From positions 4,847-68,846 of the forward strand of contig JAPVVG010000103.1 of the NCBI GenBank assembly GCA_028571455.1: a stretch of DNA of 64,000 bases, written 5' to 3'. The stretch is from Desulfobacteraceae bacterium (lineage in GTDB: Bacteria > Desulfobacterota > Desulfobacteria > Desulfobacterales > ETH-SRB1). The notes under the pieces were generated by a model, which was given only the letters and a program-made list of their open reading frames with translations, did not search any database and had not been told where the DNA came from. Of the stretch, positions 23,052 to 61,356 are shown one piece after another. Made by a program: the position numbers and the translations under genes. The first letter of the stretch is position 1, and every line of letters starts with the position of its first letter.

Positions 23052-23110
23052 TCGGTTGTTGACGGTTATTGACGGTTGAAGTAAATGATGATAATTGAAA
23101 TAATAAGTGA

Positions 23111-23274: not shown

Positions 23275-23320
23275 TTACAATAATAGTTGCCAATGATAAA
23301 CATACAACGGGGCTTGAAGA

Positions 23321-32534: not shown

Positions 32535-39264
<6,730 letters not shown>

Positions 39265-39784: not shown

Positions 39785-39793
39785 ACCACTCTC

Positions 39794-40825
39794 CTACTTC
39801 CAGATAAAAGGTGGATAACCATCCAGGTCTCCGCGCAAGTAACGAGCCATCAACAAGGCCTGCATATGAAACAACAAGCCGATTGTAACCTTTTCTTCAA
39901 TAAACGGATGCATTATCTCATCTTGTTTTCTTCTCTGATAGGCAACCAAAACAGTCTTTCTTGTCTCGTCATCCATCAATACAGCGCCTGATTCTGACTT
40001 TTTAAATCCTTTTTTCTGCACCTGTGAAAGATTTATCAGCGAAAGTGTTAAACGATCTGCAATAAAAGGACGAAATTCTTCCATCAGGTCGAGTGCAAGT
40101 CCGGGCCTGCCCGGACGGTCTCTGTGCAAAAAACCAACCGCTGGGTCCAATCCCACAGATTCAAGGGCAGAACGAACATCGTGCATTACAAGTGTGTATA
40201 AAAACGACAGAAGGCAATTTACGTTGTCCAATGGTGGCCGTCGATTTCGATCCTGGAAAAAGAAGTCTTTTTTTTGAGAGGTAATCAGGTGATCAAATAC
40301 TTTAAAATAGACATGCGCTGCATCACCTTCAATGCCTCGCATGGAATCCAAAGGTACATCTTCCTGTAAACGCTTCAGAGAATAGCTAATCTGCTTTGAT
40401 ACTTGGCTGACTTTATCTGCATCAAGCTTATCGGAGTGGTCTCTTAATGCCCTTTGCAGTACAGTGCGGCAGTTGGCAAGTTTGCCGGTAAGCACAGATC
40501 TTGCCATTTGAGCAGAAAAAGTCATGTCATCTGCCCTGCGGTATTGTTCCCGCCGCAGCAGGACATTTCCGGAAACAGGGCCCTGCACCCTTGCAAGAAA
40601 GCGTCCATACTCAGATAAAAAGCTGATAGACACATCGCGCTCGGCGCAAAAGCCCATCAAAAACGGGCTGCAACCTACATTGCCAAAACAGACAATCCCT
40701 CCTAATGTATGGACGGGAACACGCAAGCGGGTTTGTTTTTCCACCCTTACGATAACCGATTCGCCTTCTTTTGCAAGATAGGCTCCCTGTGTAGTTACAA
40801 AAAGGGTATTAAGATGTCTTTTCAT
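39794..40825 (-). CDS. cas1: CRISPR-associated endonuclease Cas1 (type I-C)
   Basis: 343 aa with the conserved Cas1 core. ATGA overlap with cas4. Confidence 0.95.
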   Translation of the reverse strand: MKRHLNTLFVTTQGAYLAKEGESVIVRVEKQTRLRVPVHTLGGIVCFGNVGCSPFLMGFCAERDVSISFLSEYGRFLARVQGPVSGNVLLRREQYRRADDMTFSAQMARSVLTGKLANCRTVLQRALRDHSDKLDADKVSQVSKQISYSLKRLQEDVPLDSMRGIEGDAAHVYFKVFDHLITSQKKDFFFQDRNRRPPLDNVNCLLSFLYTLVMHDVRSALESVGLDPAVGFLHRDRPGRPGLALDLMEEFRPFIADRLTLSLINLSQVQKKGFKKSESGAVLMDDETRKTVLVAYQRRKQDEIMHPFIEEKVTIGLLFHMQALLMARYLRGDLDGYPPFIWK

Positions 40826-41472
40826 GATTCTCGAATCGCTCCCGACAAGTAGCGTTTTACTGAACGTTTTCTTTCAATAGTTTTCGGCAGGCATATCTTC
40901 GCCAGTGAACAACTGTCACACTTTGGCGTATAGACTGGTTTTGGAGTCAGGCCGGATGCAATCAGTTCGTGGAGACGCATTGCCGTGTCTTCAGTCTGCT
41001 GTCTCAATGCGCCATCAAAGATAACATCTGTTCTCCGGCGCTTCTTCCCATAAAAAAGCGCACCGCACGGAACCTCAACATTTAGCATTTCTTCCAGACA
41101 GAGCGCCTGAGCGCAAAGCTGTACCTTATCGCAATTATTCTTCTTTGGTTTGCCGCGTTTATATTCCACGGGAAACGGTATCCACACCAACGATCCTGCT
41201 TTCTGCAAAGCCGGCTTTCGATGAAACTCAACAACGTCCGCCTTGCCGATTAGCCCCAGCCGAAATGAACGAAGCCACATGCTGTACTCAATGCGAACTT
41301 TGCCTCTGGATTGCCGATCTGCCTCATGAACCCGCTCGTGCATAATTTTGCCTTCGGCAGTAAAAAGGTTTTCCGCCCACGCCTGCTCAATATGTATTAG
41401 AGCGCACTGCCGCTCGCAAAAAATCAGATGCTGCAAGGCAGAAAGTGGAATGAGGTCGTCTTCTGAGTACAT
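40822..41472 (-). CDS. cas4: CRISPR-associated exonuclease Cas4 (RecB-like nuclease with 4-Cys cluster)
   Basis: 216 aa with an N-terminal Cys (FCERQCAL), C-terminal CDSCSLAKIC and a nuclease core (IGKADVVEF). Confidence 0.9.
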   Translation of the reverse strand: MYSEDDLIPLSALQHLIFCERQCALIHIEQAWAENLFTAEGKIMHERVHEADRQSRGKVRIEYSMWLRSFRLGLIGKADVVEFHRKPALQKAGSLVWIPFPVEYKRGKPKKNNCDKVQLCAQALCLEEMLNVEVPCGALFYGKKRRRTDVIFDGALRQQTEDTAMRLHELIASGLTPKPVYTPKCDSCSLAKICLPKTIERKRSVKRYLSGAIRES

Positions 41473-41499
41473 ATAAAAAAATTCTGAAACTTTTCAGTA

Positions 41500-42141
41500 T
41501 CAGCCTTCCTCTGAAATAAGGTTCACAATAAGCCGAATCATCAATTCCTTCTGCCCCGGTTCACTCGCTGCCGTCAGAAGGGCAAGCGCCACGAGCGCCT
41601 TGTTGCTGAAGCTTTTTTGATCCAACAAGTCATTCTTTTTGAGAAACAACAGGAAGAGAAAAGAGCCGATCCTCTTGTTACCATCCGTGAAAGGATGATC
41701 CTTGATCACGAAATAGAGGAGATGGGCCGCCAGTCTGCGCTGATTAAGCGAATAACCACGCACGAGATGGTCTTTTAGAACGGTGGTAGCCCAAATGCGA
41801 AACTGAGTGCCGCGTTTAGCATTCACCCGATAACCTACCGCTATAATGACATCTAAATTATAATAATTCGTTTGGTAAGTTTTACCGTCACCAGCAGTAT
41901 GTGCAAATTTTGCACATACTGCCTTTTTATCTAATTCTTCACTCCGAAAAATATTGTTAATATGCTTGGTTACAACACTTCTCTCCGTTTCAAAAAGAGA
42001 GGCTATCTGTTTCTGACTGAGCCATACGGTTTCATCCTGAAGATGAACATCCAGCGCTGCCTGCCCGTCCTCAGACTGATACAATACGATTTCGCCGAGA
42101 TCGGAATTAATGCTTTCGATCTTTCCTGCCTTTCGAGTCAT
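41500..42141 (-). CDS. Chimeric RhuM-N-terminal / Fic-Doc-core protein inserted in the cas operon
   Basis: 213 aa. Residues 1 to about 125 parallel the RhuM protein at 50772-51800 (LSQKQIASLFETERSVVTKHINNIF vs LTQKKMAELFEKGRTTITEHLKNIF; AVGYRVNAKRGTQFRIWAT vs AVGFRVNSHRAIEFRKWAG). The C-terminus carries the Doc-type motif HPFTDGNKRIGSF. Confidence 0.8.
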   Translation of the reverse strand: MTRKAGKIESINSDLGEIVLYQSEDGQAALDVHLQDETVWLSQKQIASLFETERSVVTKHINNIFRSEELDKKAVCAKFAHTAGDGKTYQTNYYNLDVIIAVGYRVNAKRGTQFRIWATTVLKDHLVRGYSLNQRRLAAHLLYFVIKDHPFTDGNKRIGSFLFLLFLKKNDLLDQKSFSNKALVALALLTAASEPGQKELMIRLIVNLISEEG

Positions 42142-42317
42142 TGTTATTGCTCCACGTTGCTACTTTTTTCCTTCAACCGCTTACTGCTTTCCTGTTCAGC
42201 CTTCGGGGATGGGATGGACTGAACAATGCGAAAAATGCCCTCGGTGTTGGCCGTAATTTGTTTTACGCATCTTGCCGTCAAGGGCTTTCAGATGATGATT
42301 TTTGCATTATTGATCAA

Positions 42318-43166
42318 TCAGAAGCCATCAACGATCTCTGGCTTTAGGTCATCAAAGGAATTGAGCTTTTCGGAATCCAAAGAACCGTCCGGATTTACAG
42401 AAAGTCTCCTGTGAACTTTTGCCGATGAATATTGCCCATGTGGACAATTATGCTGCCACCAAACCATCTTAAGAACTTCCATACTTCCTTCCGGTCGAGC
42501 CGAGGATGCGTCATTTTCAAAAAGCTTTGGCAGTATATTCTTAATAGCCAAGGCGTCTTCATCGCCGAAGCCGGTTTTTGTTGCAAGTTGAGGGTTCATG
42601 CTGCCATAAAACACGTAAACCCCTTCATCTACACGATGCTTCATGCCCATCGTATCGGAACCTTTTTTCGTGCCGTCACCTTCTCCGCTGACACTCTTGG
42701 TGATCTGGGTGCTTGTAATATCCACGGGAAATAAAGAAAAGGCCGTATGAATCGAAACCGGACCTCTTACGCCGATTGACACGCCGGAACCTTTTTTTTC
42801 TCCGGCATACGCAAAAACCTGTCCGAATGCCCGGATATCAAACCATTTTTTGCAGGCTAATTCAGCATTTTCTTTAGAGGACTTTTTTGAATCTATAACC
42901 GTTTCAGCTCGTTCACGGAGATTTTTGCAATCATCAAGTTTGTTGTCATCAGATTGAACGAAAATTTGATATTTATACTCATCATTTTCTTTGACTTCCA
43001 TTAAACGATTTCTGATTTTTCGTTTGATGCAAACGTCTGAAACTTCTCCGATCCTGTTGTAACTTGTGCGGGGCCGGTTTCCGTTCAAAGGATCTCCATT
43101 AGGGTTGGCATTTTTAACTTTAAACACAACGGCGAAATCAATTTTATTCGTTAGGCTCATTATCAT
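42318..43166 (-). CDS. cas7: Type I-C Cascade backbone subunit Cas7c (Csd2)
   Basis: 282 aa: VKNANPNGDPLNGNRPR..., typical of Csd2. It lies between cas8c and cas4. Confidence 0.9.
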   Translation of the reverse strand: MIMSLTNKIDFAVVFKVKNANPNGDPLNGNRPRTSYNRIGEVSDVCIKRKIRNRLMEVKENDEYKYQIFVQSDDNKLDDCKNLRERAETVIDSKKSSKENAELACKKWFDIRAFGQVFAYAGEKKGSGVSIGVRGPVSIHTAFSLFPVDITSTQITKSVSGEGDGTKKGSDTMGMKHRVDEGVYVFYGSMNPQLATKTGFGDEDALAIKNILPKLFENDASSARPEGSMEVLKMVWWQHNCPHGQYSSAKVHRRLSVNPDGSLDSEKLNSFDDLKPEIVDGF

Positions 43167-45504
43167 TCTCCTCTTTGTTAGTAGTGTTTTCCTGAGTTGA
43201 TTTGAAAAGTTCTACTCGTTGGCAATGGAATCCTAAAAGAAATTCTCCAGACAACGGATCATCGGATGCATAACCGGAAACATCGGTGAATAAACCGTGA
43301 ATATCATCGAGTTCTTTATCGTATTTATTGGTTCTGTTAAGCTTGGCCTTATAGGGTGTTAAGGCCAGCTCAATGGTTTTCCATGTGCTGCATGGTCGTT
43401 CCGCAAACCGTTGCATCAACTTTGTTGCATTGGTCTGCCTGCTTTCATTTGAAAGTTTGAGCGCATACCCCTCAAGGCAGTCTGCTACCGCAAGCAGTCG
43501 CCCATAGAGATAGTCTCTGGTTTTTCGTTCTTGATCAAGTCCCATGGTGAAATCCTCCTTTTCTTTGAAATAATATCTATAAAGTCCGCAAGCGATTCCC
43601 AAAGTTTTCTGCCATGCCCACTCAGGCAAACTTTGTCTTTGGGTCGCTTTTTTTATACATGAATCAACAATATCCCAAGGTAGTGGCGTACCATCAATAA
43701 TGCATGGAATTAATCGCTCAACTGTTGTTTTCTGTAAGCTATCATCGACCTTAATTAGATCTCCGTCCTTTGTTCCATAAGCTGCCTGGGCAATATCTTT
43801 GGGAGCTGGCGCTCCGTAAAACATTTTGTCTTTTGAAAATCGTTGCAGCCATGCGCATCCCTGATGCCACGATTCTAAACGGTCTATAAAATCAGAACCG
43901 GTCAATTCACGGTAATAAGTAACTGCCATGCGACCTGGGGTAGCGGAGTCGATTCCCATTACAACAATTTGATCTGTTGCCTTCAGTTTAACGGAATAAC
44001 CCGAAAGATACTTTGAGAGGCGAATTCCGAATTCCTGAGCAGTGAATCCGGAAAAGTTTTTCTCTGTTTTTTTTATATCGGTTTCAATCGAAATGTCACT
44101 CAATAAGTCGTCACTGTCTGCCAGCGGATCAGGAACATTTACCGCCGAAACTGCCCACGCGACAAAAGCCAATTTAGGCTCGTTTTTTACGTAAAACACA
44201 TTTTTTCCTTGTCGAGCTATTAACCAGCGCAACGCATTATGGGCTTTTTGGGCCACTCTAACGTCAACTCCGCAAACTTGACATTCATCCGTAAAACGAC
44301 CGCGGTAGGTAAAGCCGGAAGTGTCATTTGATGAAATAAGTTTTGCACCATCGTTATCAGATCTAATCATACGCGGATATTGTTCAGTCTGATATTTCGG
44401 CTCTTCAGTAGTTGATTCTCCAGAAACATAGCAAAAAATATGTTTGCTTCGTGTGCTTTGATAATAATCAATCCAGCTTTGCCATACGGTTTTATCGTAT
44501 TGGATCTCTGAGGATGGTTCTCCTGGGATTTCAACACTCCAGCGGATAAATGTATCCGTTTGTCTTTGACCCTGCCCAAGCACTTTAAAAATATCCGGCT
44601 TATCATCCCGTTTGCCTTTCCATGAGCTGAGCAATTTTCCATTTTCATCCACATGAAGCACTTTCTCAAATACTAAATCTGAAATCAAAGTCCCTTTGGA
44701 TATGTAATGATAGACGGCTTTTACTTTTTGGTTTGCATATTCAGATTTTGCCCATCCCTCTAAAACATCGAGATATCCTATGTATCCTGTCTCAATTGAA
44801 GGATATACGCATTCCAAAATATTAGCTTTCAGATAGTTTTTTTCCTTATCAGAAAGCTGGTCAGCATCACCAATTCGCCTTCTTAATTCTACATATTGTT
44901 CTTTCTGTTCTCTCTTATTGTTTGTTAATTTATTATTATTTTTTCGAATCAGAGGGCTGTCGGAATCAATCAAATCGTAATAAATTTTATCTGTTTTACG
45001 CTCTCTAATATCTGTATCTATCTTTGATGAAAAAACCTGCTTTTTTGCCTTAAAGCTTTCAATGATATCAACAAATTGCTTATTCTCTATTAAAATTCTT
45101 CTCAGGCAACCTTTCTTGTCTTTATCACTATTGCCCAACAGTTCGCCAAACAGCTTTTTATTTCCTTTGAACTTGACGAACAATGAACCAAAGTAATGTT
45201 CTTTAGCGCCACCATATTTTTCATAATCAGCAGCAACATATTGCAATTGATCTGCTAAAGGATGAGGGGCGCAGCCTCTGGTTCTTCCAGCAGAATTTTC
45301 CGTTGCAGGTAATATTGTCTTCGCGGTATCTTCTGGTATAATTGATGCCCGTTTAAATGAGCCATCTCCATCCAGTATTATTTCAACATGTGCCCGTTTT
45401 TTTGTTGTATGGAAAAGAGGCAAAAGCGGTGTTTTATCCTTCTTATCGCCTATATTATCAGTGTTATTTTCGTAGGTTTGATAAAGTTTTTCAATCCAGC
45501 TCAT
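43144..45504 (-). CDS. cas8c: Type I-C large subunit Cas8c (Csd1), unusually long (786 aa)
   Basis: ATG at 45504 is preceded by GAGGAGG. MSWIEKLYQTYENN is a Csd1-like N-terminus. Its position between cas5c and cas7c also fits. Confidence 0.85.
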   Translation of the reverse strand: MSWIEKLYQTYENNTDNIGDKKDKTPLLPLFHTTKKRAHVEIILDGDGSFKRASIIPEDTAKTILPATENSAGRTRGCAPHPLADQLQYVAADYEKYGGAKEHYFGSLFVKFKGNKKLFGELLGNSDKDKKGCLRRILIENKQFVDIIESFKAKKQVFSSKIDTDIRERKTDKIYYDLIDSDSPLIRKNNNKLTNNKREQKEQYVELRRRIGDADQLSDKEKNYLKANILECVYPSIETGYIGYLDVLEGWAKSEYANQKVKAVYHYISKGTLISDLVFEKVLHVDENGKLLSSWKGKRDDKPDIFKVLGQGQRQTDTFIRWSVEIPGEPSSEIQYDKTVWQSWIDYYQSTRSKHIFCYVSGESTTEEPKYQTEQYPRMIRSDNDGAKLISSNDTSGFTYRGRFTDECQVCGVDVRVAQKAHNALRWLIARQGKNVFYVKNEPKLAFVAWAVSAVNVPDPLADSDDLLSDISIETDIKKTEKNFSGFTAQEFGIRLSKYLSGYSVKLKATDQIVVMGIDSATPGRMAVTYYRELTGSDFIDRLESWHQGCAWLQRFSKDKMFYGAPAPKDIAQAAYGTKDGDLIKVDDSLQKTTVERLIPCIIDGTPLPWDIVDSCIKKATQRQSLPEWAWQKTLGIACGLYRYYFKEKEDFTMGLDQERKTRDYLYGRLLAVADCLEGYALKLSNESRQTNATKLMQRFAERPCSTWKTIELALTPYKAKLNRTNKYDKELDDIHGLFTDVSGYASDDPLSGEFLLGFHCQRVELFKSTQENTTNKEENDNEPNE

Positions 45505-46228
45505 TTTGCAGTGCCTCCTCATTAAGCCCGTTGGATTGGGGCGGATTGGGAATCATTTCACGCACAAATTTTCTCATGGTGCATTTCTCAGGGCGGATAA
45601 ACTTGATTATTCCTCTCTGCATGACCGGTTTCCAAAACCGACTGTGAAGCCGGTTTTCTCCGTTTGAATCAGATTTGCCATTCTCATCCGTTTTCCCTGT
45701 TTCATCTGGATAATCAAACCCATGAAACATGATGCCGTAATCCAAACGCTCAAGGTCGTCATAAACACCGGTTTCTTCCCCAAAACGGCACGGTTCCACA
45801 TAACCTTGGCATTCTCGTGCACCGAGAAAAATGTCCTGTCTCCCGCCTTTATCAATCATTCGTTTTGCAATCTGAAAATGTTTCCCGTCAATACGATCCG
45901 CTGCCATATCTTCACGAAACAAATTCCACTCAAAATGTGCCTGTACCTGATATTCGACATCCGCAAGATACGTGTACATCGCCAATGTATTCCCACCTCC
46001 ATAATTTAGAGGCTTAATACTTTTGGCTTCCGTTTTTATCGGTTTCATTATCCGAACTTCATCAATTATCCAGATTAAAGTAGGCTTCCAGTAGACGGAT
46101 TTCAAAATCCCTTTTAATGCCTCATATGTAGGAATATGGTAGGAACACTTCTCGCCGCCCATTCTGGTCACGGGATCGGTGAACAGAGCATGCCGCCCCG
46201 TTACTTTGAATTCAACACTGTTTTTCAC
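45491..46228 (-). CDS. cas5: Type I-C pre-crRNA endoribonuclease Cas5c (Cas5d)
   Basis: 245 aa: FKVTGRHALFTDPVTRMGGEKCSYHIPTYEALKGILKSVYWKP. No cas6 is present in the locus. Confidence 0.9.
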   Translation of the reverse strand: MKNSVEFKVTGRHALFTDPVTRMGGEKCSYHIPTYEALKGILKSVYWKPTLIWIIDEVRIMKPIKTEAKSIKPLNYGGGNTLAMYTYLADVEYQVQAHFEWNLFREDMAADRIDGKHFQIAKRMIDKGGRQDIFLGARECQGYVEPCRFGEETGVYDDLERLDYGIMFHGFDYPDETGKTDENGKSDSNGENRLHSRFWKPVMQRGIIKFIRPEKCTMRKFVREMIPNPPQSNGLNEEALQNELD

Positions 46229-46238
46229 TTTAACCTCC

Positions 46239-48698
46239 TTATGCGCTTAAAAATTTCATTTCTGAGACCGGTTCCAGGCTTACACCAAAATCTTTACTGT
46301 AATATTGATCATCCAAATACCATATTCCGCTTTCTTCATACGTCTGAAACAGGGCATTTTCTTCACGCAGTTTTTTAATCATATAGGGGAAAATATTTAC
46401 AGAATACTGCTGCGCAGTTTTCAATAGCTTCGATTCTTCTTTCAGGTGTAATTTTGCCGAAAGCTTTGCAATTATTGACTTTGCCTCTTCATTGTACGGA
46501 ACAATAATTGCCTCTGTTGGTGCATCAATTATACGGAAATGTTTGCCCGCTGTTTTGAATGCCTGCCTCAAATACAGGGAGGGACTTCCGCTTTTTCTTT
46601 TGTATTCTTCAACAGATTGCCGGTTTTCTGAAAGCAGAGACAGCAAATTGTCGTCACTGCCCAATCTCTCTCTGGATACCTGATAACTCATTTCATGCGC
46701 TCGTTCGTAAAAATAGTACTTATAAAATTGTTTCATGGCTTTATGGCCGATTCTATCTTTATCGAAGTCGGCAGGATTCTTTTTATACTCATCAAGGATT
46801 CGTAATGTCACATCTTGAGCTGTCCTGATTTCCGGTAATTTATCAAGGTTTTCATTTTGCATATTGACGATTTGCACTATTCCCTTGACTTCTTGTCTTC
46901 CGTTGCGATTACAACGCCCTGCTGCCTGGGCTATAGAATCAAGACCGGCCAAACAACGAATGACAGCTCCGAAGTCTACGTCCACCCCGGCCTCAATCAA
47001 CTGGGTGCTGATGCAGATGACTGGTTTAGAATTCGATGGGCCAAGACAATCAATCACCTGGTTTAAAATAATTTTCCGGTGCTTGGGACACATGTTTGTG
47101 CTGAGGTGAAATACATTTTTCGACAGACCGTGACAGGATTCGTATAAGCGTTTTGCATTTGCCTTTGTATTTGTAACGACAAGCACGCTTCCCTTATCTT
47201 GCAAAAGCGCTTTCACACGCTCTGTCAAATCTTCTTCCGTCCATCCCCCGCTTTTTTGACAATCTTGCACCTTCACCCGATTTAGTGCATCAAAAAGCGG
47301 AGGATAATCCACGATTTCCATAGCATCAGAATACGGCACAGTGCCTTTAGACGGTTCAACTTCATGCAAAAGCGGCTGGGTCGCAGTGCAAAAAATAACA
47401 GTAGAAAAGCAAAGATCTGTTAAAAAATTAATTGCGTTGTTAAACATGTGAACGGTTTTGATTGGCAGAGTCTGAATTTCATCAAAAATGATGACAGATT
47501 TTGCAAGTTGATGCATACGACGCACACTGCGTGTTCCGCCTCCGAAAAGCGTTTCCAGTAATTGTACGGATGTAGTGAATACGATCGGCGCATCCCAGTT
47601 TTCCGACAAAATCCGGTTTCGGTATGTGTCTTTTTCAGGCACAAGATTTGAGTGGTGCTCCAAAACAATTTCTTTGGATATGCCATCAAATATTTTAGCC
47701 ACTTCTGATGCGTTCTGATCAATTATCGAGGTATACGGAATGACATAAATAATACGGTCAAGTTCATGCTCTTTTGCATGGTGGAGGGCAAAACGAAGAC
47801 TGGAGAATGTTTTTCCGCCTCCTGTCGGAACCGTCAAATAATAAAGTCCCTGCTTGTCATTTGCCCGTTGCCTGCAGGACGATGAAATCTCGCATCTTTT
47901 TTGATCGACTTTATTTTTAATTTCAAAGGATATTTGTTCAAAACAATCTATCAGTTTTTGCCAATCCGGGTAATTCCCGAGATAACGCAATTTTGCATCT
48001 TCCGGGTTTTCGAAATTGGCGGTACTCAACCTGTCCGCATCCACTAAACTACTGAAAAGGAAGCGGACCAACAGTCCTTTTGAAAATTGCCGTACAGGGT
48101 CACAGTAAAACCCATGGATCTTGCTTATGAAATTCCTTAATTGATCATTTTTCCCCTCTGTTTTAATCAGTTCAGTGATGCGGTCTGAAATTGAATAATC
48201 AATTTTTTCTTGCGCCTCGCAATAATGCGTCGTAGTGAAATCTTTATTCAGTCGCACTGAAAATTTATCTTCACCGGCAATATCGAATACATCGATCAAG
48301 CCCGAATGGTGAGAGAGTACACATAAAGAGACTATTTCCACCGCCAGTTTGTTGATTTTGACTTCATCTTTTAATGCATCCCAAATCCATTGCGCACCGG
48401 CAGTGGAATGATCGATTTTGCCTCTTAATCTCTCTGCATCTACATAGTTTTTATCCCCCGGAAAAAGCAATCCAACGGCGGATTTTATGTAGCATTGATA
48501 TTCAAAACTGTATTTTCCCAAGTCATGAAGTAGCCCTGACAGCTCACCGATCAGATCCAACCCGATTTTGCCCGCAAATTTTTTAGCAAACAGAGAAGTT
48601 TCAACTGAGTGTGTTTTCACGCTATGTCTGGCACAATCGACTTTGCGATAATGTGCCAAATAGGATGTAGTCTTCATTTTAATATCTTCTTTTTTCAA
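46239..48698 (-). CDS. cas3: Cas3 helicase-nuclease (HD domain plus SF2 helicase)
   Basis: 819 aa. HD motifs (LLHDLGK), Walker A PTGGGKT and DEIQ box. An alternative start is ATG 48677. Confidence 0.95.
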   Translation of the reverse strand: MKKEDIKMKTTSYLAHYRKVDCARHSVKTHSVETSLFAKKFAGKIGLDLIGELSGLLHDLGKYSFEYQCYIKSAVGLLFPGDKNYVDAERLRGKIDHSTAGAQWIWDALKDEVKINKLAVEIVSLCVLSHHSGLIDVFDIAGEDKFSVRLNKDFTTTHYCEAQEKIDYSISDRITELIKTEGKNDQLRNFISKIHGFYCDPVRQFSKGLLVRFLFSSLVDADRLSTANFENPEDAKLRYLGNYPDWQKLIDCFEQISFEIKNKVDQKRCEISSSCRQRANDKQGLYYLTVPTGGGKTFSSLRFALHHAKEHELDRIIYVIPYTSIIDQNASEVAKIFDGISKEIVLEHHSNLVPEKDTYRNRILSENWDAPIVFTTSVQLLETLFGGGTRSVRRMHQLAKSVIIFDEIQTLPIKTVHMFNNAINFLTDLCFSTVIFCTATQPLLHEVEPSKGTVPYSDAMEIVDYPPLFDALNRVKVQDCQKSGGWTEEDLTERVKALLQDKGSVLVVTNTKANAKRLYESCHGLSKNVFHLSTNMCPKHRKIILNQVIDCLGPSNSKPVICISTQLIEAGVDVDFGAVIRCLAGLDSIAQAAGRCNRNGRQEVKGIVQIVNMQNENLDKLPEIRTAQDVTLRILDEYKKNPADFDKDRIGHKAMKQFYKYYFYERAHEMSYQVSRERLGSDDNLLSLLSENRQSVEEYKRKSGSPSLYLRQAFKTAGKHFRIIDAPTEAIIVPYNEEAKSIIAKLSAKLHLKEESKLLKTAQQYSVNIFPYMIKKLREENALFQTYEESGIWYLDDQYYSKDFGVSLEPVSEMKFLSA

Positions 48699-48760: not shown

Positions 48761-49675
48761 TTATTTAAAAATGCGCCAAAAAGGGTCATTATGCCAATTC
48801 TTGAAAAAGCCCATTTTTTCAAGTTGTATATCGGGATTATTGTCAAGAAGATCCAACAAACGGTATTGCCAGCGTGACCCATCTGCTACGACAGACAGAA
48901 ACACATTCAAAACAGCGGCTTGAGCATAAAAACCGGTATTATTTTGAAGATGTCTTTTAAATTTATTTGCGACTTTCGGCTTAACTGTAAATTTTCTGTT
49001 CCAGATACGTGAATGGTGTGCGCAGAGGTTTCGAAGATAAGTAAATGACTGCAGCCAGGATGACATTATATTGTAATGCAGATAATATTGATCGCTAATT
49101 TGTTTGCGATCTTTTCGTGATCTTAGATTGCTGAAAATATTTGACCATGCTCCTACAGAAAGAGCTTCCGCCACTATCCAGACAGGCGGCAGATATGGTT
49201 TGTTATAATTTTTAAAATAAGTACCGCAGGATTTATTTTGTTTTTTTCTATTATTAAAGCCTGTTTCATATTCGATGGTTTTTATTAAGTCTTTATAATT
49301 AAAGCTGGATTTAAAGAGCATTGGTTTGAGATACCAATGGGGTCCGTATTTTTCACACATTGTGGAGGAAATAGTTGTTCGTATGGCAACTTCGATTCTT
49401 TCTACAGCATCCATAACCAATAATCTGAGCTTTCTATCAAAAATATAGAGCGATATTATAGAATCAAATGTAGTGCCCTTTTTAAAAATGTGCTCAGAAG
49501 TATTTTGAAGCTGGAAAGTTCGAAAATAACCGGAAAGGCGGTGGTAGCCTATAAAGCGAAGATAATGGAGAACTCGTTTTGGGTTTTTAACAAGCAGGCC
49601 TTGCTTAACAAGAAGCTCAAGCTGTTGGTCGATATTTAAAACCGGTTTTTCGTAACGCTGATAGATTTCAGACAT
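48761..49675 (-). CDS. Abi_2 (AbiD/AbiF-like) abortive-infection family protein with HEPN-type Rx4H motif
   Basis: From ATG 49675: MSEIYQRYEKPVLNIDQQLELL.... Contains LRNLCAHHSRIWN (R-x4-H). The track ORF's TTG start at 49702 lacks support. Confidence 0.75.
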   Translation of the reverse strand: MSEIYQRYEKPVLNIDQQLELLVKQGLLVKNPKRVLHYLRFIGYHRLSGYFRTFQLQNTSEHIFKKGTTFDSIISLYIFDRKLRLLVMDAVERIEVAIRTTISSTMCEKYGPHWYLKPMLFKSSFNYKDLIKTIEYETGFNNRKKQNKSCGTYFKNYNKPYLPPVWIVAEALSVGAWSNIFSNLRSRKDRKQISDQYYLHYNIMSSWLQSFTYLRNLCAHHSRIWNRKFTVKPKVANKFKRHLQNNTGFYAQAAVLNVFLSVVADGSRWQYRLLDLLDNNPDIQLEKMGFFKNWHNDPFWRIFK

Positions 49676-49734
49676 AAAAAACCCGCCGAGGTGCGCATCC
49701 AATGGAGAGGCGTGGCGGGGATTGTTATAAACAA

Positions 49735-55561: not shown

Positions 55562-55827
55562 GATATATAGCACGAAATAGTTCTGGGATGGAGGAGGGAT
55601 AAGGTCGTGGTGAAAATAGCGCGAAAAGTATTATTAAAAACTGGTTGTTAATCCGTTATTATTCTATAATAACAAATAGTTGTAAATGTGTAAAAAGATA
55701 TGCGTCAGGCCTGACTTAAATATCAGCCTTGACCAAGATTTGGCGGATTTTGTTATTGCAAGCGCAAGAAGATGGCATGGAGAGCGAATTGTTGTATTGC
55801 TAACATTTATGGTGTATGGTTTTGCAA

Positions 55828-55984
55828 CTACTCACGTAGTCAGGCTGAAGCTGTTTAGACTGAAGGCTGAAGGGGTCAGAAGAGCACGATTGCCGTACTT
55901 TGGCGGAAATATCTAATTCTTGTACCAAACATGGCTTCAAAGTGCGCTTTTTCCTAACAATCTTCAGCCTATCCACCTGAGTAG
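55828..55984. mobile_element. MITE-like palindromic element, copy G2
   Basis: Near-identical to 23111-23274, with a few substitutions and one CTTCAGC word fewer. Confidence 0.7.
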
Positions 55985-56026
55985 TTACACGGTTTTAACA
56001 ATTTCCGATATAAAGGATGGCGAAAG

Positions 56027-57814
56027 ATGAAAAATATTGACACAAAAAGGAGGTCAAGCCTGCCCCCCAAAAGCCCTGAGACAGATGCCTGGTTTACGGC
56101 ATTTTTTATAGAAAACCATCTTGACTATTATACCTACCCCGACCATGTTTCCACACCTGAACAGATAAGATTCATTGTCTTTACTACTGAAGAAGATGAG
56201 CGGTATTATCCATGTTCAGATCGCATGTTTGAAGCCATCATGAACAGAAACCAATCGGAATTTTTACAGAAAAATTATCATGAGATTTTGCAAAAAATAC
56301 TTAAACTTATTGACAGCCAAATAGAGAATAAAGACGAGAAGGCCTATCTTGAATCGCTGATTAAAATCAAGTACCAGCATGAAACAAGGGATGAAATCAT
56401 GATACCATCCCGCCTTGAAAAGCGCCTGCTGGGAATCTTCTTAAACCGCACCCAGATTGAAGACCCTTACATTTGTGAAAAAGCCCTGCGAAATAGCCGC
56501 TCAAACAAAGCATTAAGCTCAGATGCCTTAATCAATGCCATGAATCATGGAGCTATCATTGATCCCAAAAAGCCCCCTTCAACCATTTCGGGCATTAAAA
56601 AAATTTTGCATTATCTGGAATTAGAGAGATTTCTTTGTCTGTCTATGGAACACTCTCTGTGGGAGTCTGATAAAGCCGCGGGCTACACGCAAAATGATTA
56701 CCTTGGCTTTTTTAACCGCCGGTTGTCCGGCAACGGCGTCGAGCCTCTGTTTGACTTTTTGGGCGCTCAGGACAAGGAAAAATCTCTACCCAAAAAAATA
56801 CTATGGTTAGCGGATGAATCAGGAGAGATTATGGTGGATCTTGCCATAATTAATTATCTTGCAAACTTAGGGCATAAAATCATTATTGCTTTCAAAGATG
56901 GACCCTTTTTTACCAAAGTCGATTATTATGACGCTGTTGAAGATGAAATGTTGGGCGAAAAGCTTAAAGGGGCATTATTTATTTCTGAAAAAAACCTTGG
57001 GAAAAATGAACTCGCAAATATGTTGAAAAGCGATAAAAATATCACTGTCATATCTGACGGAACACGTGAAAATCTCAACCTCCTTCTTTCATCTACAACA
57101 TTTGCCAGAATTTTCAAAGAGGTTGACGGTGTAATATCCAGAGGTCATGATCAAAGGCGGCGCTTCTTTGACACTCATTTTCAATTTACTCAAAACATAT
57201 ATAATATTTCAGCAGGTGATAAAGGGTCGGTTTTAATCAGCTTCAAACCTAAGCATCCCGCAGTAATAAAATTTTCTCATGCAGACCTTGAAGATAAAGC
57301 TAAAACAATTATTGACCAGATGAAAGAGGCCGGGGAAAAAGGGATGACGGTAATATTTTACAGTGGAATTATCGGTTCCATACCGGGCAAGATAGAAATG
57401 GCAAAGAAAATAATGTCTGTTTCCATCAATCTCCTCAGGGAACAGTTTGCAATGACCTTTATAATAAATCCTTCGGAATATTATGAGCCTGGGATGGATG
57501 CGGATGACCTTATATATATGTGGGAAATCGTCCAGAGAAGCGGCTTTATAGATATATGGCGATTTCAGACATATGGGGATATTGTTCATACGTTTCAGAG
57601 TATGGATAAAAAGGTCCCGCCTGAATGGGTGGGCAAGGATGCCACATTCAGTACAGGATGCACAAAAGAAATGAAAATCGCGCTTGAAGTGCAGCAGAAA
57701 TATCCGGAAATGCAAATTATCGGGCCGCCACAAGAAAGGTTCATGAGGCGCAAAGAGTACGGCATAGGCAAGATGTATGATCAAAGGCTAAGTGAAATCT
57801 GCCGGCAGAAATAA
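56027..57814 (+). CDS. Hypothetical protein (possible degenerate DUF89/ARMT1-like region)
   Basis: 595-aa ORF. The segment ILWLADESGEIMVDLAIINYLANLGHKIIIAFKDGPFFTKV loosely recalls the DUF89 core. Weak. Confidence 0.5.
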   Translation: MKNIDTKRRSSLPPKSPETDAWFTAFFIENHLDYYTYPDHVSTPEQIRFIVFTTEEDERYYPCSDRMFEAIMNRNQSEFLQKNYHEILQKILKLIDSQIENKDEKAYLESLIKIKYQHETRDEIMIPSRLEKRLLGIFLNRTQIEDPYICEKALRNSRSNKALSSDALINAMNHGAIIDPKKPPSTISGIKKILHYLELERFLCLSMEHSLWESDKAAGYTQNDYLGFFNRRLSGNGVEPLFDFLGAQDKEKSLPKKILWLADESGEIMVDLAIINYLANLGHKIIIAFKDGPFFTKVDYYDAVEDEMLGEKLKGALFISEKNLGKNELANMLKSDKNITVISDGTRENLNLLLSSTTFARIFKEVDGVISRGHDQRRRFFDTHFQFTQNIYNISAGDKGSVLISFKPKHPAVIKFSHADLEDKAKTIIDQMKEAGEKGMTVIFYSGIIGSIPGKIEMAKKIMSVSINLLREQFAMTFIINPSEYYEPGMDADDLIYMWEIVQRSGFIDIWRFQTYGDIVHTFQSMDKKVPPEWVGKDATFSTGCTKEMKIALEVQQKYPEMQIIGPPQERFMRRKEYGIGKMYDQRLSEICRQK

Positions 57815-58044
57815 GTCAGAAGTCGGAAGTCAGAGGTCAGAGGTCAGAGGTCAGAGGCCGGATGTCGGATGTCGGATGTCAGATGTCAGAGGCCAGAAAA
57901 ACAGCAACTCAATACCCATGAACCTCTGTTTCTCATTGGGTATTTGTTTTTCATTCGATGTTGGACGTTCGATGTTCGATGTTGGACGTTCATCTTTTAA
58001 TATGTGTTGGAGGTTCCCTGGTTCCCACGCTCCTGCGTGGGAAC
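57815..58044. repeat. Simple-word repeat tracts and palindromes
   Basis: Heptamer tracts (GTCAGAG/GTCGGAT)n at 57815-57896. Hairpin CAATACCCA...TGGGTATTG at 57910-57944. (GATGTTGGACGTTC)n at 57954-57991. GTTCCCACGCTCCTGCGTGGGAAC at 58021-58044, also present inside D1. Confidence 0.8.
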
Positions 58045-58093
58045 GAGAAAAAGGCTAACGGCTAATCGCTCAATTTAGTTATAGGATGGCGAA

Positions 58094-59113
58094 TTGGAAT
58101 TTACGATAATCATCAAAATCTGCATAATATTTTTTCTGCTTATTTTTTCAGGTTTTTTCTCTGGATCGGAAACCGCTCTGTTTTCTCTTTCGCTAATGCA
58201 GCGTGAACGCATAAGAAGAAGCAAAAGTAAAAGAGCCGCCGTGATTGACAGGCTTCTTATGCATCCGAAACAGCTTATAATTACAATCCTTATGGGCAAC
58301 GATCTTGTAAATATAGCCGCATCTGTTGTAGCAACATATCTCTTTATATCCATATTAGGCGAACACGGCAAATGGGCTGCAATTATTATCATGACCCCTT
58401 TGACCCTGTTATTTGCCGAGGTTATACCAAAAACATTTTCAGTGGCCCATAATGAGCGTGTTGCCCCTTTTGTATCAGGACCTCTTTACCTGTTTTCAAA
58501 ACTAATTACTCCTTTGCGGTGGATTTTCAATGAGTCGGCGAATTTAATAATCAAATTTTCAGGCTTTGAAAAACAAAAAGCTCCAGCCACAATCATGGAG
58601 GATGATTTCCGCGACATGGTTGATCTGAGTCACAAAGAAGGCGAGCTGAAAAAGATGGAAAAGGAGCTTATCCACAATGTTTTCGAGTTTAGCGACACCC
58701 ATCTCTTTGAAGTCATGACTCCCGTGGAAAAAATGTTCTGCCTGACGGAAGATATGGATATAGACACCATTTTAAAACATATTAAGAAGACCCCTTTTTC
58801 CAGGATACCGGTTTGCAAAGAAACTGCGGATAAAATCACTGGAATTCTTTATGTAAAGGATCTGTTAAAGGTTAAAATTAAAAAGATCGGCGGGCAAACA
58901 AAACCTTTGCCAAAAATATGCAGAAAACCTTTTTTTATACCAGAGACAAAAATGGTTGATGAACTCTTTTATATCTTAAAGCAAAAACATACACATATTG
59001 CCATCTGCCTGAATGAGCAGGGAATGGTTTCAGGGCTTGTCACAATGGAAGACCTTTTAGAAGAACTCTTTGGTGAAATCTATGATGAACATGATATGGG
59101 TGGAGCCCGATGA
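58094..59113 (+). CDS. CNNM/DUF21 transporter with CBS pair (no CorC_HlyC tail)
   Basis: 339 aa. The N-terminal DUF21 TM region (FFSGSETALFS) is followed by a CBS pair and ends after LLEELFGEIYDEHD. Confidence 0.8.
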   Translation: MEFTIIIKICIIFFLLIFSGFFSGSETALFSLSLMQRERIRRSKSKRAAVIDRLLMHPKQLIITILMGNDLVNIAASVVATYLFISILGEHGKWAAIIIMTPLTLLFAEVIPKTFSVAHNERVAPFVSGPLYLFSKLITPLRWIFNESANLIIKFSGFEKQKAPATIMEDDFRDMVDLSHKEGELKKMEKELIHNVFEFSDTHLFEVMTPVEKMFCLTEDMDIDTILKHIKKTPFSRIPVCKETADKITGILYVKDLLKVKIKKIGGQTKPLPKICRKPFFIPETKMVDELFYILKQKHTHIAICLNEQGMVSGLVTMEDLLEELFGEIYDEHDMGGAR

Positions 59114-60345
59114 TTAGCCTGAATATAATTATAATAGCTCTTTGCATCCTTATTCAGGCCTTTTTTTCCGGCTCTGAGATGGCGCTGATAGCCTCAAATA
59201 AGCTAAAACTCAGGCAAGAGATTGCAAAAGGGTCAAAAGGGGCCAGGCTTGCGCTAAATATGATTAACAACCAGCAATGGTTCCTTGCGAGTACCAGCAC
59301 AGGAACAAATATGTTCGTGATAATATCCTCAGTTATCGCTGCTACATGGTTTCATCACTTTTTCGAAATCTATGGCGAGCCCTTGACAATTGTTATCATG
59401 TCTCCCGTGCTTTTGATGTTTGGAGAAATAATCCCAAGAACACTTTTCCAGCAAAATGCAACGAAAATCGCTCCAAGGATCGCTAAGACCCTATGGGTAG
59501 CATCACGTATTATATCGCCTGTTACATATCTGGTTTTTTGGGCCAGCAGGCTGTTTTACGGCCGCTTAGGACAGGAAGCCTTTAAAAAACAACATCTTAT
59601 CACCAGAGAGGATCTGGCGCTAATACTAAGGGTGTCCGGCGAAGAAAGCGATCTTCAGAAAAAAGAAAAAAAACTCATACACAGGGTTTTTCATCTTGCT
59701 GAATCGGATGTTGCTGACGTCATGGTTCCTCTAATTAATGTCACAGCCATACCAGACACAGCCATTGTAGAGGATGCCATAAAAATAATCAGCCAGACCG
59801 GCTATTCCAAACTCCCGGTGTTCAAAGATAGAATTGACAACCTTACAGGCGTTATATTTGCCCGAGATCTACTTGACGTCCCCGACACCCTGGCAAAGAT
59901 CGGTCAGTTTATGCGCAAGGCGGTTTTTGTGCCTGAACTTAAAAGGGCTGATGATCTTCTGCTTTCGTTCCAGAAAACCCATGACTCCATTGCAATCGTT
60001 GTTGATGAATATGGCGGAGCTGTGGGAATTATTACACTTGAAGATATTCTTGAAGAGGTTGTTGGGGAAATCCGAGATGAATATGATATGGAAACAGGCC
60101 AGTTTGTCAGGCTTGGCGAAAACCGGTTCCTGGTAAATGCTGCAATGGAAATCGAGCGTGCCAACGAAAAAATGAATCTTAATCTGCCCAAAGAAGATTA
60201 TGAAACCATTGGAGGATTTCTTCTGAAACAGATGGGGAAAATCCCGAAAAAGGGAGAAGCATTAATATACAAAAATGTAAAATATACCGTCATGCAATCA
60301 AGCAACAGGGCAATTAACGAAATTCTTATAGAGAAGGTTGTTTAG
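59110..60345 (+). CDS. Hemolysin/CorC-family transporter (DUF21 + CBS pair + CorC_HlyC)
   Basis: 411 aa with FFSGSEMALIA, a CBS pair, ILEEVVGEIRDEYD and a C-terminal transporter-associated domain. It overlaps the upstream paralog by 4 nt. Confidence 0.85.
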   Translation: MISLNIIIIALCILIQAFFSGSEMALIASNKLKLRQEIAKGSKGARLALNMINNQQWFLASTSTGTNMFVIISSVIAATWFHHFFEIYGEPLTIVIMSPVLLMFGEIIPRTLFQQNATKIAPRIAKTLWVASRIISPVTYLVFWASRLFYGRLGQEAFKKQHLITREDLALILRVSGEESDLQKKEKKLIHRVFHLAESDVADVMVPLINVTAIPDTAIVEDAIKIISQTGYSKLPVFKDRIDNLTGVIFARDLLDVPDTLAKIGQFMRKAVFVPELKRADDLLLSFQKTHDSIAIVVDEYGGAVGIITLEDILEEVVGEIRDEYDMETGQFVRLGENRFLVNAAMEIERANEKMNLNLPKEDYETIGGFLLKQMGKIPKKGEALIYKNVKYTVMQSSNRAINEILIEKVV

Positions 60346-60792
60346 ACTGTAGGCTGTTAGGCTGAAGGCTGTTAGTTTTTGCGCATTGATCGAAGCAAAG
60401 CGGCCAAAACCTTTTCGGTCTCCACAATTTTTGATTCGCAGCCGGAAATGTCATGTTCATCAAAATACCCCAGACGTTTTGACAAGCCAAACTGGTAATG
60501 CAACTCCCTTAAGGAACCGAACGCAATTTCAAGAAAGCGGAGATACTCGACCTGACTCTCACGTGCGCACCCTTCAACGATGTTTGATGGAACTGAAACT
60601 GCCGCTCTTCTCATTTGGGAAGTCAAGCCATATATTTCCTCCTTCGGAAATTTCCTGGTTGCTCGATAGATCAGAAGCGCCACTTCGTCAGCCAGTTCAA
60701 ACGCTCTGAGCTTAGTATGATCACGCATCCTCACCCCCCTAACAGCCTACAGCCTAACAGCCTTCAGCCTATCCAACTAACAGCCTAACAGC
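60346..60792. mobile_element. Intact palindromic cassette: four-helix-bundle gene flanked by inverted simple-word arms
   Basis: Left arm is GACTGTAGGCTGTTAGGCTGAAGGCTGTTAG (60346-60376). Right arm is CTAACAGCCTACAGCCTAACAGCCTTCAGCC... (60739-60792), its reverse complement. Confidence 0.75.
60372..60734 (-). CDS. Four-helix-bundle protein (23S rRNA intervening-sequence protein family, PF05635-like)
   Basis: 120 aa with RAAVSVPSNIVEGCARES...FLEIAFGSLRELHYQ, the family signature. Confidence 0.85.
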   Translation of the reverse strand: MRMRDHTKLRAFELADEVALLIYRATRKFPKEEIYGLTSQMRRAAVSVPSNIVEGCARESQVEYLRFLEIAFGSLRELHYQFGLSKRLGYFDEHDISGCESKIVETEKVLAALLRSMRKN

Positions 60793-61356
60793 CTATTCCT
60801 TAACCCGCTCAACATATTGACCTGTTCTGGTATCTATCCTGACAAGCTCCCCCTCCTCAACAAATGGAGGCGCCTGCACAAGAAAACCTGTCTCAAGTGT
60901 TGCCGGTTTCGTGCTCCCTGCCGCGGTATCACCTTTGACCCAGGGATCGGTTTTAATAATCCTTAGATCGACAAAGTTGGGAAGCGATATGCCGATCGGT
61001 TTGCCTTTAAAAAAAAGCACATTGCAAACAGTATTTTCTTTTAAGAATTTCATCGACTCATCAACATGCTCTTTGGCTAAAAACTCCTGATCATATGTAG
61101 ATGTGTTCATGAAACAGTAACCGTTATTATCCGAATAGAGATATTCCATTTCATGCTCTTCAAGGTTTGCCTCTTTGAATTTTTCGCCTGATCTAAATGT
61201 TCGGTCAAACTGAACCCCTGTAAGCATGTTTTTTAACTTACACTTATAAAGAGCCTTCCCTTTACCCGGTTTTACAAAGGCAAATTGAACTATTATATAT
61301 GGTTCTTCATCCAACTCAATTTTAAGACCTTTTCTCAGGTCACCGCTTTCAAGCAC
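60793..61356 (-). CDS. efp: Elongation factor P
   Basis: 187 aa with the conserved loop VKPGKGKALYKCKLKN. Confidence 0.95.
   Translation of the reverse strand: MLESGDLRKGLKIELDEEPYIIVQFAFVKPGKGKALYKCKLKNMLTGVQFDRTFRSGEKFKEANLEEHEMEYLYSDNNGYCFMNTSTYDQEFLAKEHVDESMKFLKENTVCNVLFFKGKPIGISLPNFVDLRIIKTDPWVKGDTAAGSTKPATLETGFLVQAPPFVEEGELVRIDTRTGQYVERVKE

Follow-up and report, generated by a model that had tools for sequence, protein, structure and literature searches.

A PF05635 gene between inverted tandem-word arms at a corC-efp junction is probably a passenger of a non-autonomous ISBst12/IS66-type cassette

The stretch of DNA analyzed here (the window) comprises 64,000 nucleotides of a Desulfobacteraceae bacterium (contig JAPVVG010000103.1, positions 4,847 to 68,846). 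Toward one end of the window, a small PF05635/TIGR02436 gene is located between corC and efp, and it is flanked by inverted arms built from short tandem words. PF05635 is a large family of uncharacterized small proteins (18,509 clusters at 50% identity), and it names the protein-coding inserts of 23S rRNA genes, whose origin has been an open question since the early 1990s. Hence, the locus raises the question of whether the gene and its arms form a discrete mobile unit outside rRNA and, if so, how such units spread. The results presented here suggest that the unit belongs to a widespread class of cassettes that are probably moved with the ends of ISBst12/IS66-type insertion sequences (ISs). 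The features of the focal locus are as follows.

59110-60345, plus strand: corC, encoding a CNNM/CBS/CorC_HlyC protein (Pfam).
60342-60376, minus strand: downstream arm, CTAACAGCCTTCAGCCTAACAGCCTACAGTCTAA in gene orientation, with the corC stop inside.
60345-60802, minus strand: inserted block of 455 bp plus one TTA copy (TTA is single in the empty site).
60375-60728, minus strand: intact PF05635/TIGR02436 four-helix-bundle gene, 118 amino acids from the likely start (Pfam, TIGR02436, PDB 2gsc, dN/dS).
60729-60739, minus strand: putative ribosome-binding stretch, rich in purines (GGGGGGTGAGG) and immediately before the ATG (sequence reading).
60738-60771, minus strand: inner upstream arm, with TAGGCTG, AAGGCTG, and TTAGGCTG in gene orientation, pairing with 60342-60375.
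60777-60799, minus strand: outer upstream block of additional words (gene orientation: TAGGCTGTTAGGCTGTTAG), with the efp stop inside.
60793-61356, minus strand: efp, encoding EF-P (Pfam).

The family assignment of the focal protein was clear. The Pfam 23S_rRNA_IVP profile matched residues 8-111 with an E value of 9e-33 (113.1 bits versus a cut-off of 33.8), and the TIGR02436 profile matched with an E value of 2.5e-32 (111.3 bits versus a cut-off of 24). The open reading frame (ORF) at 60372-60734 on the minus strand gives 120 amino acids when read from a GTG; the true start is likely the ATG at 60726-60728, which has GGTGAGG just before it and gives 118 amino acids. A GGAG or GGAGG is present at the ribosome-binding position in homologous loci too. 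The TAA stop codon (60372-60374) lies within the first word of the downstream arm.

The inverted arms at 60342-60375 and 60738-60771 flank the gene and are composed of TAGGCTG/CAGCCTA-type words, namely, TAGGCTG, AAGGCTG, TTAGGCTG, and their complements. The arms are 87% complementary over 39 nt without a gap. The pattern CAGCCTWMCAGCC occurs three times in the window, always at the focal cassette, versus an expectation of 0.01. The stop codons of both neighbors lie inside arm words: the corC stop TAG is at 60343-60345, and the efp stop (the complement of CTA) is at 60793-60795. When the sense RNA was folded, the arms paired into a stem of about 35-40 bp that enclosed the ORF (minimum free energy -169.6 kcal/mol, z -4.25), and a long arm stem around the ORF was also predicted for the RNA of a canonical element. 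No sigma-70-like promoter was found in the upstream arm, no intrinsic terminator was predicted at the focal cassette, and no cassette had an Rfam match at the gathering threshold. The original prediction, which had been made from the letters of the window, described a 120-amino-acid PF05635-like gene between a corC-family gene and efp, bracketed by reverse-complementary arms of reiterated 7-8-nt words that could form a stem of roughly 30 bp. This description was borne out: its coordinates are off by no more than one base, and 28 of the 31 positions agree when one of its two 31-mers is set against the reverse complement of the other.

Is the arm-gene-arm block an insertion? We compared the corC-efp junction in five close relatives with corC1-corC2-efp synteny, which were found in a metagenome scan with the CorC-like protein as the query. 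In two of them (L088 and L092), corC and efp abut with zero spacer and read AAGGTTGTTTAACCCGCTCAAC; the CorC proteins are 91% identical and the EF-P proteins are 94-95% identical to those in the window. The junction in the window reads AAGGTTGTTTA, then GACTGTAGG...CCTATTCCTTA, and then ACCCGCTCAAC, which corresponds to a 455-bp insert and a second copy of TTA, and the inserted block occupies the entire interval between the corC and efp coding ends. The other three relatives carry different sequences at this junction: a 20-nt scar resembling arm remnants in L090, a TAACACC word array together with a small hairpin in L089, and an arms-only hairpin with AATTGGGG/CAATTCCC words in L091. The word types found at the L089 and L091 junctions also form arms-only hairpins elsewhere in the window, as listed below.

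10452-10551, strand not assigned: arms-only word hairpin with ATTGAGGG/AATTCCC words and a 27-nt loop, of the word family seen at the L091 junction.
12521-12608, strand not assigned: arms-only word hairpin with GTGTTAA/TAACACC words, as at the L089 junction.

The corC-efp junction is a repeated landing place and is positionally polymorphic. The focal copy would have landed in the zero-length junction of the convergent corC and efp genes after the split from the relatives that are 91-95% identical.

We then looked beyond this junction. Relatives of the focal protein were obtained by scanning one genome per species; 371 were found, and the best 80, which are 70-93% identical to the focal protein, were analyzed. 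All flank statistics refer to 79 distinct loci from these best relatives, and only intact genes were sampled. The focal protein has thousands of close homologues, and its closest loci are in Desulfobacterales bins. The best 80 relatives span more than 10 phyla and about 80 unrelated contexts, and none of them is in a corC/efp context. The bins include Desulfobacterales, Victivallales, Brocadiaceae, Spirochaetia, Acidobacteriota, Verrucomicrobiota, and KSB1, as well as Bacteroidota, Ignavibacteria, Nitrospirota, Coprothermobacterota, Calditrichota, and others. No conserved 23S rRNA motifs were present in the homologous loci examined.

Most of the loci have [T/A]AGGCTG-type words upstream of the gene and CAGCCT[A/T]-type words downstream. 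This canonical polarity was seen in 39 loci, with 21 additional half-cases, versus 2 loci in which it was reversed. When the upstream flank was aligned with the reverse-complemented downstream flank, the mean score was 33, compared to 16 for shuffled sequences. Similarly, the arm duplex energy was -47.9 kcal/mol with the arm's own partner, -39.5 kcal/mol with the partner from another locus, and -31.6 kcal/mol with shuffled sequence (p 3e-6). Other PF05635 subfamilies, which occur both in these loci and on plasmids from cultured cyanobacteria, have the same architecture with words of their own, such as GGTAAAG//CTTTACC, GGGTGTA//TACACCC, AAGGGAA//TTCCCTT, GGTTGGAA//TTCCAACC-like words, GGAGATAA//TTATCTCC, and GGCAGAAGG//CCTTCTGCC. 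With the same arms around the same gene at about 60 of the 79 loci, which are unrelated to one another, and with the empty sites in L088 and L092 that the original prediction had suggested looking for, its idea of a discrete gene-between-stems cassette outside rRNA is well supported.

Several loci depart from the canonical arrangement. In L018, L021, L034, L052, and L059 (at about 2900-3500), each side of the gene has its own local hairpin, with G-type words followed by C-type words, and these local hairpins replace the single long-range stem. L056 carries two tandem copies of the gene. The word polarity is reversed in L036 and L049, which would be expected from a flip of the gene through recombination between its inverted arms. 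In L054, L072, and L079, which come from Syntrophobacteraceae-type bins, the gene (3001-3420) is at a single orthologous position, with a pseudouridine-synthase-like gene downstream of it; these loci, with the upstream arm only, show vertical retention after arm loss.

How do the cassettes spread? The best-preserved copies are 441-453 bp long and have the ends GTAACTACTCAGG...CCTGAGTAGTTAC. We examined the 8-mers adjoining 17 pairs of terminal repeats, with swapped pairs as the control. The two 8-mers matched at 8 of 8 positions in L013 (AAAATAAC), L029, and L044 and at 7 of 8 positions in L085 and in two gene-less copies in the window (m23 and m55, described below), whereas only 1.1% of the swapped comparisons reached at least 7 of 8. 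Perfect 8-bp duplications were also found in a second PF05635 cassette family, at the window copy c15 and at L108.

The same termini occur on autonomous ISs, whose ends were read from annotated plasmid elements. A 1575-bp IS on the Leptolyngbya boryana plasmid pLBX has the ends GTAACTACTCAGG...CAGCCTGAGTAGTTAC and the duplication AGAGTATC. Its termini are identical to those of the cassettes over 13 nt, and the identity is 12-13 nt for autonomous ISBst12-group elements overall. ISGka4 has the ends GTATCTATTCAG...CTGAATAGTTAC and the duplication GACGAGTT, and the termini of Deinococcus and Bacillus thuringiensis ISs are also like those of the cassettes. The inverted repeats of IS66 start with GTAAGCG and are accompanied by 8-bp direct repeats (PMC11946415), and ISDge4 of the ISBst12 group has the terminal inverted repeats GTGACTACTCAGCA/GTAACTGCTCAGCA and an 8-bp direct repeat (PMC12898284). 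The autonomous ISBst12-type elements lack tandem words. In the 455-bp block, the PF05635 ORF is the sole content, and there is no transposase inside. Because the termini match those of autonomous ISs, 8-bp duplications are present, and no transposase is carried, the cassettes are probably non-autonomous ISBst12/IS66-type elements with a passenger gene, i.e., mobile insertion cassettes. The original prediction had left the means of spread open, and the IS66/ISBst12-type terminal repeats and 8-bp target duplications suggest an answer: given the identical termini and the duplications, we infer that the cassettes are mobilized in trans by a cognate transposase.

A well-preserved cassette opens with an 8-bp target duplication, after which come the terminal inverted repeat GTAACTACTCAGG and two to five tandem 7-8-nt words of the [T/A]AGGCTG type. 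These are followed by a Shine-Dalgarno sequence, the 118-amino-acid ORF, the complementary CAGCCT[A/T] words, CCTGAGTAGTTAC, and the second target duplication. At the DNA level, an ISBst12-type DDE transposase would move copies in trans.

A number of observations weigh against this explanation. Both terminal repeats are retained in only 11 of the 79 loci. They are unrecognizable in 51 of the 79; in favor of the cassette, the arms of these 51 loci still score 32.7 versus 16.2 for shuffled sequences, with z>3 in 71%. A tblastn search with the ISGka4 transposase found no IS66-family transposase in the window and the homologous loci (540 kb). The word arrays are direct instead of inverted in L095 and L123 (the Pseudanabaena and Gemmatirosa cases), and the downstream arm is absent in L098, L012, and L054. 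The arms show no asymmetry between G:U and A:C on the two strands (91 sense versus 109 antisense); thus, the pairing constraint need not act on the sense RNA, and a DNA-level or two-strand constraint is possible. In addition, the taxon labels of the loci are those of metagenome bins. Canonical termini and an 8-bp duplication are both missing from the focal copy itself; it has only TTA...TTA, and its end CTAAACAACCT shares 10 nt with the native corC end (TTAAACAACCT in the empty site). Transposition is therefore not proven as the route by which the focal copy itself was inserted.

Alignment with canonical copies indicated what happened to the ends of the focal copy. Both terminal repeats lack their outer 8-10 nt; the canonical terminal repeat GTAACTAC is replaced by the outer word block, and the canonical GAGTAGTTAC terminus is absent from the downstream end. 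A secondary deletion between the element end and the native corC repeat would give the focal junction. Because of the loss at both terminal repeats, the focal copy is probably fixed in place.

The window contains additional copies, which have lost most or all of the gene. A phmmer search with the focal protein against all ORFs of the window did not find a second intact copy. The gene-less and decayed copies are as follows.

15073-15296, plus strand: c15, decayed second-family copy with termini GTAGCCGTTCACGG...CCGTGAACGCTTAC and GAAATTG/CAATTTC words.
20702-20822, plus strand: c20, second-family copy consisting of two arms, the last four codons, and the stop.
23107-23278, plus strand: m23, 172-bp gene-less AGGCTG-word derivative with intact termini GTGACTACTCACG...CCTGAGTAGTTAC and flanking 8-mers AATAATAA/AATAATAG.
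24403-24651, plus strand: c24, second-family copy with an internally deleted 35-amino-acid ORF in which MKRVYELDVYKLAE is fused to YKAIVEKLGPKLNAFINSTKA.
55824-55988, plus strand: m55, 165-bp gene-less copy with flanking 8-mers ATGGTTTT/ACGGTTTT.

The m55 copy is 95% identical to m23 and has one word fewer. The last bases of the ORF remain in m23 (AATGCGC..CTAACAG), and m55 likewise carries the ORF end. The second-family copies c15, c20, and c24 have GAAATTG words and the ends GTAAGCGTTCACGG on the reverse complement (GTAAGCG termini); in the case of c15, the reverse complement of the terminus reads GTAAGCG..., the classic IS66 start. The c15 ORF is reduced to its C-terminal codons, and the copy is framed by the perfect 8-bp duplication CTTTATAC at 15065-15072 and 15297-15304. 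The remnant ORF matches many database proteins of 35-83 amino acids, some of which are flagged PF05635, and a look-up of the 35-amino-acid remnant (P0171) returned one locus in many samples, not many insertion sites. A c24-type form of 205 bp in another organism (L108) has the perfect 8-bp duplication ATATTTTC. Taken in order, the copies in the window form a decay series from the full gene to a 35-amino-acid remnant and then to arms only. Many of the heptamer hairpins that lie between genes may have arisen by the decay of cassettes.

These copies also bear on a simpler explanation, namely, that the arms are generic, slippage-prone intergenic arrays of the short tandemly repeated repetitive (STRR) kind, that the gene lies between two of them by chance, and that there is no cassette. 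The window does contain other 7-8-nt arrays or arms-only hairpins, at 5945, 10452, 12521, 57815, and 57954, and relatives have different word hairpins at the corC-efp junction. Word number also varies between populations: at about 500-545, L110 differs from L108 and L112 by one AATTTCT word in the same-site 205-bp miniature element, which is direct evidence of word-number change by slippage. What generic arrays do not account for is that the same word family accompanies the protein subfamily with the same polarity in unrelated genomes of many phyla, that other PF05635 subfamilies each have their own words, that the block is missing as a unit at empty sites, and that gene-less derivatives retain both arms, terminal repeats, and duplications. 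This explanation is largely refuted, and we give it very little credence; chance juxtaposition with generic repeats was rejected on the basis of the word family, the polarity, and the empty sites.

One array in the window was recorded separately. In the intergenic stretch before the first CNNM gene, at 57807-58045, about 12 tandem GTCAGAG-type heptamers precede a small hairpin and five TTCGATG/TTGGACG heptamers, which lack complementarity to the GTCAGAG array. The palindrome TTCCCACGCnnnnGCGTGGGAA comes after them, and it recurs inside c15 (15137-15158) with its loop inverted.

How would the gene be expressed if the cassette lacks a promoter? The nearest upstream gene is co-directional with the cassette gene in 71 of 75 loci, and the median gap is 73 nt. 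When the cassette lies between two co-directional host genes, it is in the sense orientation in 46 cases and in the antisense orientation in 1; another 17 cassettes are at convergent junctions, as the focal cassette is, and 3 are at divergent junctions. Because only intact genes were sampled, this bias may reflect which copies stay intact. The orientation statistics, together with the lack of promoter or terminator signals, suggest that the cassette gene is a promoter-less cistron that lives on read-through from the co-directional gene upstream, which would be efp at the focal locus.

In the transcript, the arms would pair into a stem of about 35-40 bp enclosing the cistron, and RNase III would cut this stem and detach the cassette transcript from the host mRNA. 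Such detachment would explain why cassettes are tolerated inside operons and rRNA genes. The proposed cleavage is based on analogy with the intervening sequence (IVS) in the Coxiella 23S rRNA gene. That IVS has a 28-bp terminal stem and two to three tandem GACAGAT repeats before the ATG, which are polymorphic between strains; it is cut by RNase III in vitro, with the 5' cut at the first heptamer repeat, and one strain has an internal deletion of the ORF (PMC4990558).

The words also hold inward-facing stop codons on both sides, so that host genes with displaced ends terminate at once, as corC and efp do. As a side observation, all three frames of the inward-reading arm strands are closed by stops in 49-52% of cases versus 21-23% of shuffles, and this roughly twofold enrichment fits the fact that corC and efp end inside the arms.

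What does the protein do? Strong purifying selection maintains it, with a median dN/dS of about 0.10 and a median pN of 0.19 versus a pS of 0.82. For the window versus L008, the dN/dS is 0.065. In this analysis, 88% of the homologue pairs were saturated at synonymous sites. No PADLOC model matched the focal protein. The crystallized protein XCC0516 (PDB 2gsc) matches residues 2-117 of the focal protein with an E value of 1e-24, and PDB 2rld shows weaker homology; both crystal entries have five chains. The focal protein is presumably a pentameric, Avd-like toroid that binds nucleic acid. Our preferred guess is that it binds nucleic acid and possibly the word arrays, as the covariation of words with protein subfamilies and the homology to Avd would suggest.

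This guess leads to a second explanation, in which the cassette is semi-autonomous: the PF05635 pentamer would recognize its own tandem arm words, either in DNA or in RNA, and would be needed for spread, maintenance, or expression, and arms-only hairpins would be non-autonomous parasites in the manner of RAYTs and REPINs. The covariation of word sequence with protein subfamily agrees with this idea, as do the 3-6 words per arm set beside the five chains in 2gsc and 2rld, the strong selection on the protein, and the persistence of the arms after the terminal repeats are lost. The words are also specific to the cassettes, since autonomous ISBst12 elements share the termini but lack the words. 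Ralph and McClelland have proposed that the IVS ORF serves mobility (cited in PMC4990558). In contrast, the covariation is expected from common descent alone, and the words vary widely inside a single subfamily of 70% identity. To our knowledge, PF05635 has no catalytic or sequence-specific binding motif. On balance, we consider a semi-autonomous cassette unlikely.

One could also ask whether the focal protein is itself the Avd of a diversity-generating retroelement (DGR). It does match bAvd (PF22296, E value of 4e-4) and NF033474 (28.8 bits) weakly, and its family is homologous to Avd (PMC10053308). Both scores are far under the cut-offs (40 bits for bAvd and 80 bits for NF033474), however, and the genes within 3 kb do not include a reverse transcriptase; they are those for CNNM/CorC, EF-P, a 264-amino-acid protein without a Pfam match, and a GMP-synthase-like ORF. 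We rejected this assignment as next to impossible. A RAYT-like system was also rejected; the Pfam matches of the focal gene are PF05635 and weak bAvd only, with no Y1/HUH transposase.

We also considered whether the gene is domesticated, no longer mobile, and has arms that serve as a posttranscriptional device (a stabilizer of the mRNA 3' end or an insulator) for efp and corC. The focal copy has indeed lost its outer terminal repeats, the arms supply the stop codons of the neighbors, the protein is under selection, and a type II secretion operon harbors a cluster-mate of the focal protein with an identity of at least 90%. In the latter case (L098, gene at 2437-2848), the gene order is gspM, an unknown gene, PF05635, gspC, PDZ, and gspD; the PF05635 stop overlaps the next start, and the upstream word arm is retained while the downstream arm is lost. 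Close relatives lack the block at the corC-efp junction, though, so it is not needed for the expression of efp and corC, and the arms have no terminator-like T-run. As an account of the cassette, domestication is very improbable; as a present-day state of this copy, it is compatible with the non-autonomous ISBst12/IS66-type element that we favor.

Reportedly, genes annotated "23S rRNA IVP" are statistically associated with CRISPR adaptation modules, and such PF05635 associations may be insertion hitch-hiking. Two of the loci, both from cultured cyanobacteria, concern this point. On a Pseudanabaena galeata plasmid (L095, 1300-2000), a PF05635 gene lies between cas6 and cas4, with GCTAAAA repeated directly 17 times upstream and GCCAAAA 9 times downstream, and on a plasmid of Picosynechococcus PCC 7003 (L124, 353-709), a PF05635 gene lies between cmr2 and cmr3.

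Other features of the window are away from the focal cassette. A large CRISPR array (repeat GTTTCAATCCACGCCCCCGCATGGGGAGCGAC, about 100 units) adjoins a type I-C cas operon with cas3, cas5d, csd1/cas8c, cas7, cas4, cas1, and cas2; the two occupy 32535-39197 and 39494-48698, and a RhuM/Fic-domain gene (41500-42141) is located between cas7 and cas4. At 48761-49719, an Abi_2 (AbiF-like) abortive-infection gene directly follows an abiF RNA motif (39.9 bits; 49681-49719 on the minus strand), which is the sole Rfam match in the window. At 29378-29472, three tandem copies of the 30-nt unit TAACACCCCCACCATTCCCCCCTCGAGGGGGG are inside the ORF at 28849-30354.

What do the cassettes mean for the inserts in rRNA genes? 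They may be the source of the protein-coding inserts in some of these genes, and the question of insert origin becomes concrete and testable, with cassettes of about 450 bp that have IS66/ISBst12 ends and tandem-word stems and lie sense-wise behind host genes. A broader proposal is that PF05635 genes overall are the cargo of an "excisable cistron," in which the word arms would be both an RNase III excision stem and an array bound by the pentamer, ORF-bearing 23S IVSs would be landings in rDNA, and arms-only hairpins would be offspring. We regard this proposal as rather doubtful; if true, any host transcript, rRNA included, could tolerate the cassette and serve for its expression. Parts of the picture are already known, namely, ORF-bearing IVSs with inverted repeats, heptamers in one IVS, mobile insertion cassettes, and IS66-family ends. 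In the incomplete library of literature that we searched, we found no paper with the cassette architecture outside the single Coxiella IVS, which does not prove that it is unpublished. The same library held no report that we could find of a link among IVSs, heptamers, mobile insertion cassettes, and IS66 ends, or of general PF05635 word arms, a sense-orientation rule, or decay to gene-less hairpins.

Among known systems, the 23S rRNA IVSs of Coxiella burnetii and Leptospira, with their S23p/PF05635 ORF, encode the same protein family as the cassettes. The sizes are similar (428-444 nt in Coxiella versus 441-458 bp for cassettes), and in both cases a long stem formed by terminal inverted repeats encloses the ORF. 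Just upstream of the ATG there are tandem heptamers with polymorphic copy number, some copies have internal ORF deletions, and the sporadic distribution points to horizontal spread (PMC4990558). The resemblance to IVSs noted in the original prediction thus extends to the stem arm, which in Coxiella has tandem heptamers at the RNase III cut site. The differences are that the focal cassette lies between protein-coding genes, whereas IVSs lie in a 23S rRNA helix (9, 25, or 45); that the Coxiella ORF seems to be untranslated and decaying, whereas the cassette protein is selected and has a good ribosome-binding site; and that IS66-type termini and target duplications are not reported for IVSs.

Mobile insertion cassettes and miniature inverted-repeat transposable elements (e.g., MIC231) share with the PF05635 cassettes the IS-type terminal repeats, the lack of a transposase, the passenger gene, the 8-bp duplications (IS66/ISBst12), and the presence of gene-less miniatures in the same genome. 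In contrast to these elements, the arms of the PF05635 cassettes extend inward as tandem 7-8-nt words, the cargo is one small gene family across phyla, the orientation to host transcription is almost invariant, and most copies, the focal one included, have lost the termini but keep the arms and the ORF.

REPIN-RAYT systems are alike in that one small gene lies between inverted repeats, gene-less hairpin relatives are found in intergenic regions, and the repeat type tracks the gene subfamily. A RAYT is a Y1 (HUH) transposase that is usually single-copy and vertically inherited, whereas PF05635 is not known to be catalytic, occurs in multiple copies, and spreads horizontally, and the cassette repeats are tandem words bounded by DDE-type termini. 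The Avd proteins of DGRs have a homologous four-helix-bundle fold with pentameric relatives that have been crystallized (2gsc and 2rld), but the focal locus lacks a reverse transcriptase and template/variable repeats, and its score is under the Avd cut-off. Finally, the cyanobacterial STRR arrays and the TAACTGA arrays of Beggiatoaceae are intergenic tandem heptamers that often lie just in front of start codons (PMC4679880). They are described as direct repeats of other words, without a PF05635 gene or terminal repeats, whereas the words of the cassettes form inverted arms around a gene.

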